DNA from: a virus
Direction: 5' to 3' (one strand)
Length of the DNA stretch: 61,256 nt
Virus record (IMG/VR): IMGVR_UViG_3300045988_077016
Coordinates: 1 to 61,256 of that record
The first letter of the stretch is position 1. The number at the start of each line of letters is the position of its first letter. Made by a program: the position numbers and the translations under genes. Positions 1,857 through 61,256 of this stretch are shown here, one piece after another. The notes beneath the pieces are model-generated. The model worked only from the letters and a program-made list of their open reading frames with translations. It was not told the DNA's origin and made no database searches.

Positions 1857-1919
1857 CAAATAAAAACCTCTCCCATGTAATGGGGGGGTAATTTTATACT
1901 ATAATGAGGAGGATTATAT

Positions 1920-2342
1920 ATGGCAAGAGTTGACACATTATCAGAACAGACCAAAAAAGAGATATTAAAACTATATGTTGACGGTAACATAACAGTAAAA
2001 GAAATATGTCAATTATATAGTATAGGATGCAAAGCGTTAAATGATTTGTTGCTACAAACTAATACTCCACATCGTGCGTAGTACCGAGTTGGGCAAAAGC
2101 GTGCTACAGCTAAAGGCAAAAAGCATTGTAGACACTGTGGGAGCAGAATTAATCCTCCCGGCGCTGTTTTTTGCTGTCAGTGCGGCAAGCCACTTTTGAC
2201 AGATAAAGAAAGAGTAATACAGATGCTGGAGCATCTGACTAATCATTTCATTTGTTTAGAACAGTCTAAACGGGACAGCTACATAGCCGAAGTCAATGCT
2301 ATTATAAAGCTTGTAAAGGCTTTAAATATATCAGATGATTAA
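1920..2342 (+). CDS. HTH plus zinc-ribbon protein interrupted by one in-frame TAG (2079..2081). The minimal product is 1920..2081 (53 aa) and the readthrough product is 140 aa.
   Basis: GAGGAGG RBS 7 nt before ATG 1920. After the TAG the same frame stays open for 87 codons and encodes CRHCGSRINPPGAVFCCQCGKPL, a classic CxxC..CxxC zinc ribbon. No ATG, GTG or TTG occurs in frame between the TAG and the ribbon. Confidence 0.6.
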
Positions 2343-2357
2343 AATATCACATAACAC

Positions 2358-2396
2358 AAAAAATGCCTTGTAAAGTCAAATTACAGGGCATTTTTA
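2358..2396. terminator. Bidirectional intrinsic terminator between the convergent plus-strand island and the TerS-like gene
   Basis: AAAAA-ATGCCTTGTAA-loop-TTACAGGGCAT-TTTTT: an 11-bp stem with one G-U pair, flanked by an A-run and a T-run. Confidence 0.75.
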
Positions 2397-2864: not shown

Positions 2865-2907
2865 TTAATATTCACCTCCATAACAAAACTAATAAATAAT
2901 TAATTAA

Positions 2908-2980
2908 CTGGGCATGATAGATTTGAACTATCGTATGCAGGAGTCAAAGTCCTGTGCCTTTACCGCTTGGCTAATGCCCA
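2908..2980 (-). tRNA. tRNA-Gln (anticodon UUG)
   Basis: Minus-strand cloverleaf. Acceptor stem TGGGCAT/ATGCCCA; D arm GCCAAGCGGTAAAGGC; anticodon stem CAGGA/TCCTG with loop CTTTGAC. T arm GATAG-TTCAAAT-CTATC, discriminator G, no encoded CCA. The 5' half closely resembles bacterial tRNA-Gln. Confidence 0.9.
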
Positions 2981-3055
2981 ATAAAGGCGAGCAGCAACGC
3001 CCGCCCCAATATAAAGAAAGGAGTTTGTAAAAAATGGAATACATTTTACAATAAC

Positions 3056-3084: not shown

Positions 3085-3092
3085 CGATAATC

Positions 3093-3155
3093 AATTTTCA
3101 ATTTGCAAATTTTTGATTTTAAATCCGCAAATTTTCAATACGCAAATTTTTGATT
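3093..3155. repeat. Two 26-bp direct repeats (3093..3118 and 3130..3155), 37-bp period, upstream of the tRNA promoter
   Basis: AATTTTCAATTTGCAAATTTTTGATT versus AATTTTCAATACGCAAATTTTTGATT (2 mismatches). Confidence 0.8.
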
Positions 3156-3171
3156 TGATTTCCGAAAAATT

Positions 3172-3345
3172 TTATTCCGAACTTTTCTTTTTTACAATTT
3201 GTTTATGACAGTTTTCTTTTTTGTACTTCTCAAAACACACCTTACCCATACCCACTCTTTGAGCATCTTCATTCTTTAATATACGGTTGCACCGCAAACA
3301 TCGAGAATATTTTTTATCGTCAATTAATCCGCAATTTTCTTGCAT
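3172..3345 (-). CDS. Small zinc-ribbon protein (57 aa), below the ORF-track cutoff
   Basis: AAGGAGAATAA-ATG RBS. Translation is MQENCGLIDDKKYSRCLRCNRILKNEDAQRVGMGKVCFEKYKKENCHKQIVKKKSSE. The CxxC..G.G..C pattern is typical of small phage Zn-ribbon proteins. Overlaps the 3' end of 3324..3545 by 22 nt. Confidence 0.6.
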   Translation of the reverse strand: MQENCGLIDDKKYSRCLRCNRILKNEDAQRVGMGKVCFEKYKKENCHKQIVKKKSSE

Positions 3346-3545
3346 TTATTCTCCTTCTTTCGTTTCCCAACTCGATAACAGGTGTAGCTGCAAAAATAAC
3401 TATTAGCAGTAGCATTGCGATATTTAAGTTTATACACATAATCGGAAGTTATATAAAATACTTTACCACAAATTGGGCAAGTCTTTCTTCTACTCTTTAA
3501 ATAACTATCCCACGTACAATTATAATAATCTGACAAGACAGTCAC
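3324..3545 (-). CDS. Small zinc-ribbon protein (73 aa)
   Basis: CPICGKVF...CSYTCY cysteine pairs. TAA stop. Confidence 0.65.
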   Translation of the reverse strand: MTVLSDYYNCTWDSYLKSRRKTCPICGKVFYITSDYVYKLKYRNATANSYFCSYTCYRVGKRKKENKCKKIAD

Positions 3546-3556
3546 CTCGATTTACA

Positions 3557-3826
3557 TTAGATATGTTCGAAATAATCACAATCAGCACTACGGGATTTGC
3601 TGCATACACATTTATCTATACCGCAAATAGACTTTGAAAACTCATTACCATTTTTATCAATGCCAATGTGGTCTTTGATGATATGCTTACAAACAACACA
3701 ATTTTTTGCATTGGGGTTTTTTAGACAAGCTCTTTCGTGTCTATCCGCAATTTTATAGCTTTTAAATATTTTACCGCAATACCCACAAAGATAACCATAT
3801 GTTCTTTTGGACATTAACATCACCAC
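3557..3826 (-). CDS. Small C2HC/C2H2-like zinc-finger protein (89 aa)
   Basis: CGYCGKIFKSYKIADRHERAC (CxxC-x12-H-x3-C) plus further Cys pairs. Confidence 0.65.
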   Translation of the reverse strand: MVMLMSKRTYGYLCGYCGKIFKSYKIADRHERACLKNPNAKNCVVCKHIIKDHIGIDKNGNEFSKSICGIDKCVCSKSRSADCDYFEHI

Positions 3827-4029: not shown

Positions 4030-4971
4030 CTATAAAATATTTACAAGCAAATAATCAATCGCAATTTCCGGCATTACAGTGCCGTTCTTGATGCCCTGTT
4101 CGATATTCGTAATCAACTTTAGCATAAATATTATATCAGCATTAGTGTATACATTAGACTTCTCTTTCGCCAATTTATACTGAAACGGCGTCAAACCTAA
4201 ATCTACGGCTTTTATATTCTTAGGAGCGGTCTGCACTGACAGGATATTTTTAAAGCCGTTATACAATGTGCCAAGTGTTAATAATTCGGGCTCACCAATC
4301 TGTTTTGCCTGTACAGAATACTTTTTAACTGCATCTATATCATGGAGCAGTATCGCATCTGTAAACTTAAATGTTATGTCACCTATAGGTGCTGTAATTA
4401 TACCCGCAGTAACTAATTTATTAAATGCTTCATCGAATGATATACTTCGATACTCCGCAAAATGCCGTATTTTATCCTCCTCTAAACGTATACGATTATA
4501 ATTACTCTCACACATTGATATAAGCTTTTTTACGCAATTTTCCGAAAAGTTTGGTAAATCAGCTAAAATGTAACTTTTTAAAATATTGTCCGATAACACA
4601 TCAAACTCACAAATTGTATCTTTATACTGCTTGTAAAACTTACTACGCTTATCTAAACTGTTATAAACTATAACCAATATTGCATCGTGCTGAATTACGG
4701 TGTTATTTACGGTCTCCCACGATTTATCATCTTTGAGGTATGATTTATCGTCAGACACTACAAAACACATCCTACCGTTATTCAAACGTGGTTTTTTAAT
4801 TGTTCTCACAGCTTCGGAAACGGTGTCAAACCTAATCGTATCGATGCATCCAAATGTTTTTGCAATTTGTTTAATATAAGTATCTCTTACATATATCTCA
4901 CTGCCTGTAAAAATATACAAATGCAAGTTTTTTTTGTTTATAATACTCTTATGCAATTCCCTTAATTCCAT
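4030..4971 (-). CDS. holA: Clamp-loader delta-like subunit (HolA-like)
   Basis: Size, position after the two AAA+ clamp-loader genes, and delta-like N-terminus (LYIFTGSEIYV...). ATG at 4971 has a GGTGAGGTG RBS; the ORF-track start at 4995 is an upstream alternative. One of only four genes ending in TAG. Confidence 0.55.
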   Translation of the reverse strand: MELRELHKSIINKKNLHLYIFTGSEIYVRDTYIKQIAKTFGCIDTIRFDTVSEAVRTIKKPRLNNGRMCFVVSDDKSYLKDDKSWETVNNTVIQHDAILVIVYNSLDKRSKFYKQYKDTICEFDVLSDNILKSYILADLPNFSENCVKKLISMCESNYNRIRLEEDKIRHFAEYRSISFDEAFNKLVTAGIITAPIGDITFKFTDAILLHDIDAVKKYSVQAKQIGEPELLTLGTLYNGFKNILSVQTAPKNIKAVDLGLTPFQYKLAKEKSNVYTNADIIFMLKLITNIEQGIKNGTVMPEIAIDYLLVNIL

Positions 4972-9020: not shown

Positions 9021-9467
9021 TCAATTATTATTGGATAATTTATACGTGACTACCTTATAATCATCCTCACCCAACCGTTCACGTTTTTTAAGAGCTGCGT
9101 CATAAGTATGATATGCCCCACCACGGGCATTAAATATAACTTCACCAGTATTAATATTTTTAACTCCAAACAGTTTGTCAACACTTGTTTTAGTTACATC
9201 TATACGCTGCCCACAATTAGGGCAATAGTGTATATCAGACACACTTTCAGTGTCTATTATCATACCACAATTAGGGCAAAACTTTGAATTATTAATAACA
9301 TTAACTGCTTTAATATTTTGACGTTCTACAACATCTCTTAATTTAGGCACCGCTTTTTCATATGAGTAACTACATTCTTTTGACGGGAACAAACAATAAA
9401 TACTACGTTCAAATATATTTATTAAATCTAACATTACATTAAGTTCATCTAACGAATAATCATTCAT
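9021..9467 (-). CDS. Zinc-ribbon protein (148 aa)
   Basis: CPNCG...CPNCG double CxxC. Confidence 0.6.
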   Translation of the reverse strand: MNDYSLDELNVMLDLINIFERSIYCLFPSKECSYSYEKAVPKLRDVVERQNIKAVNVINNSKFCPNCGMIIDTESVSDIHYCPNCGQRIDVTKTSVDKLFGVKNINTGEVIFNARGGAYHTYDAALKKRERLGEDDYKVVTYKLSNNN

Positions 9468-9823
9468 TGCAATGCCTCCTCAATAGTTCTACTAATACAA
9501 TCAAGTGATAAATTAGGCAAAGCTTTTAAAAACCAGTATTCATTCATAACATAGTAATTCTCTCCATTAGGTTCAAAGTTAAAAGCTAAAAAGGAACCTT
9601 CTTTGCCTTGCTCAAACGCCTGTTTTTTTGCCTTATCTAACCATTCTTTTTTAATTGATACTGATTTTGTCTCTTTTGTTACTGTTTTGGCTTCAATCAA
9701 AAAATGTTCTGTTAAAATATCCCCTGCTGAAAACTTTGTGCCGCCAGAATTTGGCGTAAGTTTACCACCTGTAATCTTTGCAATATGCCTTTCCTGTTCG
9801 CTACTATAATCTCTTGTACTCAA
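9464..9823 (-). CDS. PD-(D/E)xK nuclease, Holliday-junction-resolvase-like
   Basis: SGG...AGDILTEHFLIEAKT (D...ExK) in a ~120-aa protein. Confidence 0.55.
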   Translation of the reverse strand: MSTRDYSSEQERHIAKITGGKLTPNSGGTKFSAGDILTEHFLIEAKTVTKETKSVSIKKEWLDKAKKQAFEQGKEGSFLAFNFEPNGENYYVMNEYWFLKALPNLSLDCISRTIEEALQ

Positions 9824-57749: not shown

Positions 57750-59012
57750 TTAAAAACTGAAATTATTACCACCGAGATTTTCTGTTGCATAACGTAACGG
57801 GTCAATCAAGTGGTTATAATCGTCAATAGGCTCATTAATAATCTTACCATCAGTATTTTTGTCCCATACATAGTTGTTTAATTCTATAATCATATTCTCA
57901 CATCGAGGGTGTACAATGATTTCATAGTCTTGTAGTTTTAATATACCAGCTCTTACTGAATCGTTACCCTTTTTAGCAGGTCTTATTCTTGTTAAACCCA
58001 AAGCTTTTACCTCTGCAATAGATTTAGGTTCAGCACTATCTGCCTTGATTAACTCTTTATCCCAATGTAGCAGTTTTAAATCACGTACAAGCTGTGCATT
58101 GGTTACACCTGTTTTATAATATTCTCTCGGTATATAAATACGTTTTTCTTTCTCACTGGCCAAACAGAATATAACACCTGTCGGCGCTGTAAAGCCCCAG
58201 TCTAAGCCAAACAGTTTTTGATAAATGGCCATACCATATCTATCTTCCCTGTTCATAACTTCCACTTCGTCAAAGTTTTCGATATGCCAATTTGTAAAGA
58301 TAAGACCCTCTGCAATACCCCAATTACCTAAACCCTCAATACTATAACGTCTTGGTTGAGTTTCTTTCATCTTATTAAAAACACGCCTGTCATCATCACC
58401 GAGAAACTCATTACATAAATAAGTTGTAGTATCAGTGAATATATCTTCATCAGCGGGAGCATCAAAGAATCTTTTCTTTATCCAAATATTCTCACTCCAA
58501 GGGTTAAATGTCAAAGTAATCTGTTTAAAATATCCGGGTGGTAATTCACCTCTTATGGACATATCCAATTTATTAAATTCTGATTCATCTGTTATCTGAA
58601 AGGCCTCCTCCACCCAACACCAGCAGAGATAACCTCTTTCAGTTGTAATTGATGTAATAGATTGTGGGTCATCAAAACCTCTAAACAGTATCTTTTGACC
58701 AGTTGGTATATAAGTCATTTCCAAAGGATTCATAGTAGTTTTCCATAAATGCTTAACACCTAACTGATTTATAGCCCATTTTAATTGGGCGAAAGTAGAA
58801 TCTCGATGGGTATTAAAGAATTTTCTAACTACTAAAGTATTAGATAAAGGCATTTTCATCATATTGAAAATAATCCATAAAGCTGTTGTACAGCTTTTTT
58901 TACTACCACGCCCACCTTTAACTACTCTGTATCTACCTTTAAATCGCCAAAATTTACCGTAACCACCACCTATGACCTGAGATAGATTAATCACGGTTGG
59001 ATTGTTTGCCAT
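57750..59012 (-). CDS. terL: Terminase large subunit (PBSX/XtmB-like)
   Basis: Walker A KGGRGSKKS, Walker B-like CWCWVEEA, and a C-terminal nuclease region with conserved Asp residues; 420 aa. Confidence 0.85.
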   Translation of the reverse strand: MANNPTVINLSQVIGGGYGKFWRFKGRYRVVKGGRGSKKSCTTALWIIFNMMKMPLSNTLVVRKFFNTHRDSTFAQLKWAINQLGVKHLWKTTMNPLEMTYIPTGQKILFRGFDDPQSITSITTERGYLCWCWVEEAFQITDESEFNKLDMSIRGELPPGYFKQITLTFNPWSENIWIKKRFFDAPADEDIFTDTTTYLCNEFLGDDDRRVFNKMKETQPRRYSIEGLGNWGIAEGLIFTNWHIENFDEVEVMNREDRYGMAIYQKLFGLDWGFTAPTGVIFCLASEKEKRIYIPREYYKTGVTNAQLVRDLKLLHWDKELIKADSAEPKSIAEVKALGLTRIRPAKKGNDSVRAGILKLQDYEIIVHPRCENMIIELNNYVWDKNTDGKIINEPIDDYNHLIDPLRYATENLGGNNFSF

Positions 59013-60180: not shown

Positions 60181-60445
60181 TATTTGATAATGGGTGGAAA
60201 CGGTATTATCTGGCATGAACTGGTCTATTAGGCATGACTGCTTATTATTACTACTACTATAACTAATACTATTATTAATAACTACTCATTTAATCCCCGC
60301 CGCCCGGGAGCAGAATAGATATATGTACATATACATGGGAGCTGCTGGAAGTATTGATTTTATCAGCTTTTTTGAGGTTTATATCCAAATTTGGATATAT
60401 CCAAATTTCATTACAAAAATATCTAAAAAAGTATCTAAAAAAGTA

Positions 60446-60474
60446 TTGACAAATATCCAAATAAGTGTTATCAT
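60446..60474 (+). promoter_or_regulatory. Early promoter, cassette copy C
   Basis: TTGACA, 17 nt containing ATATCCAAATA, then TGtTATCAT. Precedes the AAGGAGG RBS of 60567. Confidence 0.7.
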
Positions 60475-60566
60475 AAAACCATAGAAAAAAGATATTTAAA
60501 AAATATCTAAAATATTGAATATCCAAATTTATATCCAAAAAACACTAAAATAAGGAGGAGATTAAT

Positions 60567-60686
60567 ATGGCAGCTTGTGCAGTAATGGGAGTATATTTCA
60601 TCGTGATACTCATAATTTACAGAGCTATTGAATGGATATGCTATGGCATATCCAAAAAGAATGAGGAAAGGGGATTAAACAAATGA
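60567..60686 (+). CDS. Small membrane protein (39 aa), below the ORF-track cutoff
   Basis: TAAGGAGGAG RBS. Translation is MAACAVMGVYFIVILIIYRAIEWICYGISKKNEERGLNK. ATGA overlap with the next gene. Confidence 0.6.
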   Translation: MAACAVMGVYFIVILIIYRAIEWICYGISKKNEERGLNK

Positions 60687-61126
60687 TTAAAAATTATGTT
60701 TGTTATAAGACTTTAAAAAAGACTGCTAAAACTAATAATTTATATATCTATGATAGGGGTACTTTAAATACTCCTTATGCCGCCGACTTGGCGCTGCTTA
60801 ATAACATGGATGTATCTGACGATGATTTCAAAGCAATAAATGATGAACTAACTAATTTAAATAATATTGATATATTTACAAACACACCAAACGGCATCAG
60901 CTTTATAGATTTCGACAACTTTAAATCGGCAAGACTGTTTTATTGGTTTTACAGACATCGAGTATATTCGGCAGACGGTAAACATTTGTATAACATTTTA
61001 CAGCTTGCTAAAATACGCTATATAACATATACCCGTAAATCTGTATATGATGAATTTGGTGTTGAATCCGATATAGAATTAGATTGTGGCTATTCTGCTC
61101 CTGTAACTGACATAGACTTAGGTTAA
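60683..61126 (+). CDS. Hypothetical early protein (147 aa)
   Basis: ORF coupled to 60567..60686, followed by a terminator. Confidence 0.7.
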   Translation: MIKNYVCYKTLKKTAKTNNLYIYDRGTLNTPYAADLALLNNMDVSDDDFKAINDELTNLNNIDIFTNTPNGISFIDFDNFKSARLFYWFYRHRVYSADGKHLYNILQLAKIRYITYTRKSVYDEFGVESDIELDCGYSAPVTDIDLG

Positions 61127-61132
61127 TTATAG

Positions 61133-61161
61133 AGATACCCATTAATTGGGTATCTTTTTTA
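61133..61161 (+). terminator. Intrinsic terminator
   Basis: AGATACCCA-TTAAT-TGGGTATCT followed by T6. Confidence 0.8.
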
Positions 61162-61203
61162 TTTACTCCCCGATGTTATACAAAAAATTATTTTATAAAA
61201 ATA

Positions 61204-61256
61204 TCTAAAAAAGTATTGACAAATATCCAAATAAGTGTTATCATAAAACCATAGAA
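61204..61256. repeat. 53-nt terminal overlap identical to nt 1..53, a sign of circular closure or assembly overlap
   Basis: Base-by-base comparison of both window ends. The overlap lies within promoter cassette copy A (TTGACA 61216..61221, -10 at 61239..61244). Confidence 0.9.

Follow-up and report, generated by a model that had tools for sequence, protein, structure and literature searches.

The in-frame TAG codon at 2079-2081 of the phage genome described here is, at a probability that we put at about 90%, a recent one-base nonsense mutation in a normally intact gene of 140 residues, with no recoding signal attached to it. The stretch of DNA analyzed, referred to throughout as the window, is 61,256 bp in length with a G+C content of 34.8% and amounts to an essentially complete phage genome. 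In the proposed course of events, a G-to-T change at 2079 would recently have turned the Glu54 codon GAG into the amber codon TAG in this strain. Translation would then end with the 53-residue HTH, leaving the zinc ribbon and helical hairpin encoded beyond it unmade apart from ordinary background readthrough, and the downstream frame would still be open only because too little time has passed since the mutation for it to decay further. The amber would constitute a loss-of-function (or truncation) allele that is segregating in the phage population, and it would be one among at least eight independent knock-outs of the same gene.

The interrupted gene and its relatives

The features of the locus, together with the basis on which each was assigned, are as follows.

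1868-1888, plus strand: terminator-like hairpin 5' of the gene, its 3' arm the poly-G tract 1882-1888 (G7 here)
1906-1912, plus strand: Shine-Dalgarno sequence GAGGAGG, 7 nt 5' of ATG 1920; read from the sequence and largely kept in relatives
1920-2342, plus strand: whole gene for a 140-aa HTH / zinc-ribbon / helical-hairpin protein, interrupted by a nonsense codon; intact orthologue P0004, 73-sequence cluster, dN/dS
1920-2078, plus strand: still-translated part, a 53-aa three-helix HTH of homeodomain-like or resolvase type; AlphaFold2 helices, Pfam, PDB profile match
2079-2081, plus strand: amber TAG derived from GAG (Glu54) by G-to-T at 2079, within the flexible HTH-ribbon linker; DNA alignments
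2082-2339, plus strand: now-untranslated part, the zinc ribbon (C70, C73, C85, C88) and two-helix hairpin, intact in sequence; invariant Cys, AlphaFold2 helices
2163-2168, plus strand: T6 run within the gene, a +1T frameshift hot spot in relatives, intact in the window
2363-2396, strand not applicable: hairpin GCCTTGTAAAGTCAAATTACAGGGC with a run of T after it; read from the sequence and almost invariant in all relatives
2907-2981, minus strand: tRNA-Gln(UUG), found by ARAGORN; not part of the feature

An earlier reading of the locus, made from the sequence only, had placed a start with a perfect ribosome-binding site at ATG 1920 and a stop at TAG 2079, and the coordinates and frame are confirmed: 53 codons lead from the one to the other. 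It had also followed the same frame past the TAG, as far as TAA 2340, and into a zinc ribbon. That frame is indeed open to TAA 2340-2342, over 86 codons rather than 87, and a four-Cys ribbon is present, with a central spacer of 11 residues rather than 14 (C70-x2-C73-x11-C85-x2-C88). Reinitiation is offered no in-frame ATG, GTG, or TTG between the TAG and the ribbon, exactly as had been noted, the earliest such codon being TTG 2196, which lies past the ribbon. The claim that a frame of this length would be unlikely to arise by chance holds as well, with a probability of about 0.005 for 86 open codons at the stop-codon density of the genome (5.9% of codons). The question is moot, because homologues show the downstream stretch to be coding. 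The family HMM matches each half separately (1908-2078, E 2.6e-12; 2082-2339, E 3.3e-27), and both it and the family alignment span the two halves, making the downstream half part of the same protein.

When the read-through product was used as the query against 5.8 billion proteins, it returned two truncated clusters and one cluster (representative P0001) of 73 distinct, close homologues of 140 aa, many of them on phage contigs of ~60-63 kb. Glu occupies position 54 in all 15 of the 15 cluster members read. The intact orthologue P0004 has E54 but otherwise agrees with the read-through product of the window at all 139 remaining positions; it is encoded on 10 contigs, some of them ~61-62 kb in length. 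At the level of DNA, codon 54 is GAG in L001 and in L005-L011, whereas L002 and L012, which are more distant, have GAA. Identity between L005 and the window is 99.92% over 5.1 kb: L005 has G instead of T at 2079, differs at 1282 and in how long the poly-G tract is, and shows one more single-base gap; compared over 1.5-5 kb, L005, L010, and L011 depart from the window only at 2079, in poly-G length, and at one other base. The TAG is confined to the strain of the window itself (L004 is 100% identical), and every other allele read has Glu at this codon. Because near-identical strains carry GAG, the TAG must be derived, the product of a very recent G-to-T transversion, and it is this recency that accounts for a downstream frame that is still perfectly open. 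Where CAG, TGG, or TAC had been anticipated in an alignment of homologues, the codon proved to be one for Glu (GAG or GAA). The suggestion that homologues might end at the same point and lack the ribbon also finds no counterpart, the close homologues being uninterrupted over 140 aa. From the menu of explanations offered by the sequence-only reading (readthrough, a suppressor or Pyl system, an amber mutation, or a sequencing error), the amber mutation is thus the one that stands, the others being unsupported or unlikely for the reasons given below.

Other collections contributed little. In a DNA search of GenBank phages the sole match was one of 66 bp to Dulem virus 39, and a tblastn search of the same phages with P0004 gave no match; scans of IMG/VR with a protein pattern and with a DNA pattern spanning the TAG site found no match; a single locus, L012, was recovered from the JGI metagenome contigs searched; and P0004 was without a match in GTDB genomes.

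The possibility that TAG is an error of sequencing or assembly, and that the true sequence is GAG, draws on its being a single-base difference from the closest strains. Against this, the change is a substitution and not a homopolymer indel, and over the 5 kb compared the window is matched at 100% identity by the ENA contig NODE_310 (61,259 bp; coverage 19x, as given in its name). Furthermore, the exact 53-aa product (P0020) is called on seven contigs of ~61 kb (size class 50-200 kb) in ENA, Logan, and JGI/IMG, although these may be re-assemblies of one read set and so may not represent seven samples. These contigs differ in size (61,256, 61,259, and 61,331 bp), and the genes neighboring the amber allele are intact on all of them. 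An error is unlikely because the same product has been called on seven contigs from several assemblies; we consider it very improbable, and the amber allele is probably real. A mixture of TAG and GAG genomes in the sample, or an assembly artefact common to re-assemblies of one read set, is conceivable. The database cluster to which P0020 belongs (cluster 4, P0020-P0024, formed at 90% identity and containing the fragments of this gene of 41-55 aa) also includes the unrelated 385-aa protein P0022, an artefact of database clustering.

Decoding of the TAG codon

The genome uses the standard genetic code. The earlier tally of genes ending in TAG, four of about 95 (ending at 4030, 9804, 33978, and 35315, on the minus strand), was reproduced, and the argument built on it against genome-wide recoding was correct: TAG ends real genes, and there is a single candidate split gene. 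Five TAG codons in the window are flanked by at least 50 open codons on both sides. Three of these lie antisense to real genes, a fourth, at 4030, is a genuine gene boundary, and the fifth is that at 2079.

These observations bear on the reassignment of TAG to Gln throughout the genome (code 15), which occurs in some crAss-like and other gut phages (bioRxiv 10.1101/2021.08.26.457843; PMC9523058; PMC10607447). The last of these reports gives a figure of 41 ORFs with in-frame TAG for one such phage, phAss-1. The window resembles the code-15 phages in being assembled from a metagenome and in having an in-frame TAG with a phage tRNA-Gln gene nearby, and the rarity of TAG as a terminator would fit such a scheme. 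However, phages using this code have in-frame TAG in many genes and usually encode a suppressor tRNA with a CUA anticodon, whereas the window contains one TAG-interrupted gene, four TAG terminators, a tRNA with the anticodon UUG, and a codon that was ancestrally Glu and not Gln. Nor is the gain in ORF coverage when TAG is treated as sense (87.4%, from 84.2% under the standard code) any larger than that of the control in which TGA is so treated (88.4%). Code 15 was rejected on these grounds, and we regard its likelihood as negligible.

A more local alternative is that UAG 2079 is usefully decoded by a host suppressor, by pyrrolysine, or by the near-cognate tRNA-Gln, such that a short HTH protein and a full-length isoform are both made. 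Consistent with this are the intact downstream frame and the proximity of the tRNA-Gln(UUG) gene, to which the sequence-only reading had drawn attention and which ARAGORN duly located. It is the only tRNA that the program finds in the window, and no tRNA with a CUA anticodon was detected there. The same gene, its anticodon unchanged, is present in nine of the nine relatives checked, irrespective of whether their alleles are intact, amber, opal, or frameshifted, and the tRNA is therefore unlinked to the TAG. The TGA and frameshift lesions of sister strains would, moreover, lie beyond the reach of any amber suppressor, and TAG terminates four other genes. A site of suppression or recoding would be expected to be conserved, with codons of the Gln, Trp, or Tyr type in relatives; here, the stop is private and the relatives have Glu, and the exotic readings are rejected for this reason. 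In the case of pyrrolysine, the lack of conservation of the UAG is joined by the observation, on the phage side only, that Gln(UUG) is the sole tRNA of the window.

Programmed readthrough fares no better. Sites of this kind, of which the UAG of MuLV gag-pol and the stop preceding the extension of the Q-beta A1 protein are familiar examples, are conserved together with a stimulatory context or structure, the CARYYA-type motif being one such context. The likeness to these systems is that a short product runs to a stop that is followed by an in-frame extension with a further domain. The differences are that the stop in the window is absent from all relatives read, which have Glu, and that there is no comparable RNA structure: the 131 nt from 2070 to 2200 are no more structured than shuffled sequence (MFE z = +0.98), and no stimulatory fold was found in them. 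The context of the stop is UAG-UAC-CGA, with no CARYYA-type motif. Programmed readthrough is accordingly without support. The intact downstream frame is explained simply by the recency of the mutation, and functional decoding of UAG 2079 by any of these routes is, in our estimation, most unlikely.

What is left is an amber allele, which is no new kind of feature. The am mutants of T4 and lambda are the classical amber (nonsense) alleles of phage genes, and the resemblance is close: a single-base change converts a sense codon to UAG and truncates the product, the rest of the gene is intact, and function would be restored only in a suppressor host. The allele in the window differs from those mutants in being natural and known from metagenome assemblies, in affecting a gene that is apparently non-essential, and in occurring alongside other natural knock-outs. 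The truncated 53-aa product is presumably non-functional; the HTH that it retains might preserve some activity.

Protein family and genomic neighborhood

Searched exhaustively with HMMER, 1.84 billion representatives yielded 157 relatives, 59 of which were aligned with P0004 and span its whole length; they are of 111-148 aa and have 21-43% identity to it. In the resulting alignment of 60 sequences, the four Cys residues are invariant, Y19 and R118 are nearly so, and an RD motif (R118-D119) is conserved in the C-terminal hairpin. Codon 54 sits in a linker that is variable in length and poorly conserved. AlphaFold2, run on the family alignment, predicts a structure with a mean pLDDT of 90, in which three HTH helices (9-21, 26-32, and 37-46) are followed by a linker of low confidence (51-70, pLDDT 65-73), a four-Cys zinc ribbon that is rubredoxin-like, and a hairpin of two helices (95-112 and 115-134), which may serve in oligomerization. 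For the intact alleles, dN/dS is 0.03-0.14, with N- and C-terminal halves alike (~0-0.08 against L012, where dS is ~0.75-0.96, and ~0.13 against L003), values that indicate strong purifying selection on the gene.

Members of the family match the Pfam entries HTH_23, HTH_28, HTH_7, and DZR/Zn_Ribbon_1, with the protein of the window itself falling below the curated thresholds. The profile matches PDB entry 2lvs_A at 7.6e-07, in line with the HTH assignment, and the best match in the family libraries is phrog_1303, annotated as 'DNA binding protein', with E 4.7e-4. No Pfam, NCBIfam, or PHROG family was found for the protein as a whole, and in fold searches no structure in PDB or BFVD was matched at E <= 0.001, the resemblance to HTH domains and small zinc fingers being confined to the level of domains. 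A search of the window with the family HMM revealed no paralogue and only a weak, ribbon-only match in the ORF at 9024-9479. The small phage HTH DNA-binding proteins represented by phrog_1303, HTH_23, HTH_7, and DZR share with the window protein a three-helix HTH and a four-Cys ribbon; the order HTH, linker, ribbon, and hairpin with an RD motif has neither a dedicated family nor a significant full-length match in PDB or BFVD to set beside them. Taken together, the alignment and searches indicate that proteins of this architecture (111-148 aa) form an uncharacterized family.

The phage is a myovirus of ~61 kb, and nearly all of its genes are on the minus strand. Structural functions are represented by the large terminase (57750-59012), portal, major head protein, tail sheath, tape measure, and baseplate, and replication by a DNA polymerase, DnaB-like helicase, primase, sliding clamp, clamp-loader subunits, and a UvsX-like recombinase. 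No integrase was seen among the window proteins scanned. The plus strand carries a block of short ORFs to which no function has been assigned, extending from ~60.3 kb (60290-61256) across the contig ends to 1-2342. The interrupted gene is the last in this block, and its product is probably a small DNA-binding or transcription regulator acting on that block, which would be accessory or early in nature. The distant homologue P0025 likewise resides in a block of small phage genes; on its contig, a match to PF25185 (Tad3) lies a few genes downstream, within small phage ORFs (L017, 7760-8426). The composition of the plus-strand block varies in relatives of the window (L005, L013, and L014), with ORFs added or replaced while the gene for a 188-aa protein and that for the HTH-zinc-ribbon protein are always present, a pattern suggestive of a variable module with accessory or early functions.

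Several further observations were made in the vicinity. The poly-G tract at 1882-1888 has seven residues in the window and eight, nine, 10, or more in otherwise near-identical strains, and could be hypermutable or sensitive to assembly. The interrupted gene is convergent with a gene on the minus strand (2403-2864) for a protein of 153 aa, and the hairpin at 2363-2396 that separates the two is likely to act as a terminator between them; a terminator scan did not list it. The 153-aa protein has a weak, small-terminase-like match (phrog_1595, E 5e-6), and is encoded at the far end of the minus-strand block, ~55 kb from the large terminase; assignment as a small terminase is doubtful. On the high-coordinate side of the tRNA-Gln gene (its upstream side, given the minus-strand orientation), AT-rich repeats in tandem or near-tandem with periods of 15, 22, and 29 occupy 3091-3222, and exactly one 15-bp unit (3126-3140) of them is missing from L007. 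The array could function as a promoter, as an origin, or as a cluster of binding sites. Three successive small Cys-rich proteins of 57, 73, and 89 aa are encoded at 3172-3826 on the minus strand, the 57-aa protein having weak matches to DUF6011 and phrog_636.

Recurrent knock-outs of the gene

The amber allele is not the sole lesion of this gene in nature. Relatives contain at least seven other independent knock-outs, comprising the Q46 amber, the R56 opal, and five one-base frameshifts, which brings the number of independent events to at least eight with the E54 amber of the window, in a tally that takes the recurrent +1T insertion once. The lesions located are the following.

Q46, CAG to TAG: L015, verified on DNA
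R56, CGA to TGA: L013, verified on DNA
+1G at codon 36: L016, verified on DNA
+1A in the A5 run near codon 67: L014, verified on DNA
-1A in the A5 run near codon 67: L002, verified on DNA
+1T in the T6 run 2163-2168: L001/P0002, P0018, and L020 (three backgrounds), on DNA, with P0018 known from protein only

One carrier of the +1T insertion, L020, shares the near-identical strain background of the window. When the lesion is ignored, the remainder of the gene reads as a normal protein in every broken allele, which implies that all of the lesions are recent. Equivalent searches with the flanking genes gave a different picture: no truncated relatives were found among 66 member sequences (180-188 aa) of the 188-aa upstream gene or among 65 (153 aa) of the 153-aa downstream gene. 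Broken alleles account for 8/81 distinct sequences of the interrupted gene as against 0/131 for the flanking genes (Fisher p = 0.0004), or for 4/77 against 0/131 (p = 0.018) if only truncated clusters from the same search are counted; the units in these comparisons are distinct sequences rather than independent samples, the broken alleles were ascertained via protein clusters, and very short fragments escape the protein searches that underlie the counts.

In phase-variable contingency genes, the ORF or promoter contains a long homopolymer (typically of eight or more), length variants of which switch the gene on and off. The runs inside the present ORF are short (T6 and A5-6); three of them carry frameshifts in relatives, with +1T having arisen independently on three backgrounds, and the poly-G tract 5' of the gene ranges from seven to 10 or more.

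The pattern fits a gene that is conditionally dispensable and trans-acting, and its knock-outs may be tolerated; broken alleles may then persist by complementation or by relaxed selection in some hosts. A more pointed interpretation is that of adaptive loss, in which the product would be a liability in some hosts, either sensed by a defense system or otherwise harmful, and knock-outs would be selected repeatedly. It refines the explanation of the TAG as a recent amber mutation and does not contradict it. The number of lesions (at least eight independent events in a 423-bp gene under strong purifying selection), the lack of truncated clusters for the flanking genes in both of the comparisons above, the occurrence of the E54 amber and +1T on one near-identical strain background, and the seven contigs of ~61 kb that carry the amber allele would all be in keeping with it. 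There is a laboratory precedent in the phages that escape bacterial defenses, in which, according to one report, the sensed phage gene is often mutated (bioRxiv 10.1101/2022.08.27.505566).

On the other hand, sampling is biased, in that protein clusters were the route by which the broken alleles came to light, and some contigs may duplicate others as re-assemblies. Short runs are ordinary hot spots of mutation, and five of the eight lesions are indels of a single base in such runs; knock-outs of a trans-acting gene can persist by complementation during co-infection without conferring any advantage. Adaptive loss is accordingly possible but improbable. The fuller version, in which the amber is one of many positively selected knock-outs and the HTH-zinc-ribbon protein is a conditional liability, for example as a trigger of host defense, is a little more doubtful again. 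A recent amber mutation, whatever the forces acting on it, is the reading that we prefer for the TAG itself.

In terms of annotation, the locus should be treated as one gene with an internal stop, that is, a disrupted allele, and not as two genes or a site of recoding, and the phage should stay on the standard genetic code. A note of caution is also warranted: a lone in-frame TAG beside a phage tRNA-Gln gene in a gut-type phage can mimic code-15 recoding or readthrough, and comparison with near-identical strains settles the question of the TAG at once. What interest remains is modest and concerns the repeated inactivation of this gene in particular, together with the uncharacterized HTH-zinc-ribbon family. 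More widely, a small regulator that is conserved as a protein has been knocked out at least eight times, next to two flanking genes without knock-outs. If this pattern of lesions reflects selection, it points to a phage gene that is conditionally costly. Were adaptive loss to be true, the intact gene would be kept by purifying selection while escape alleles arise repeatedly, and the uncharacterized family would become a candidate trigger of host defense, identified from metagenomes alone.
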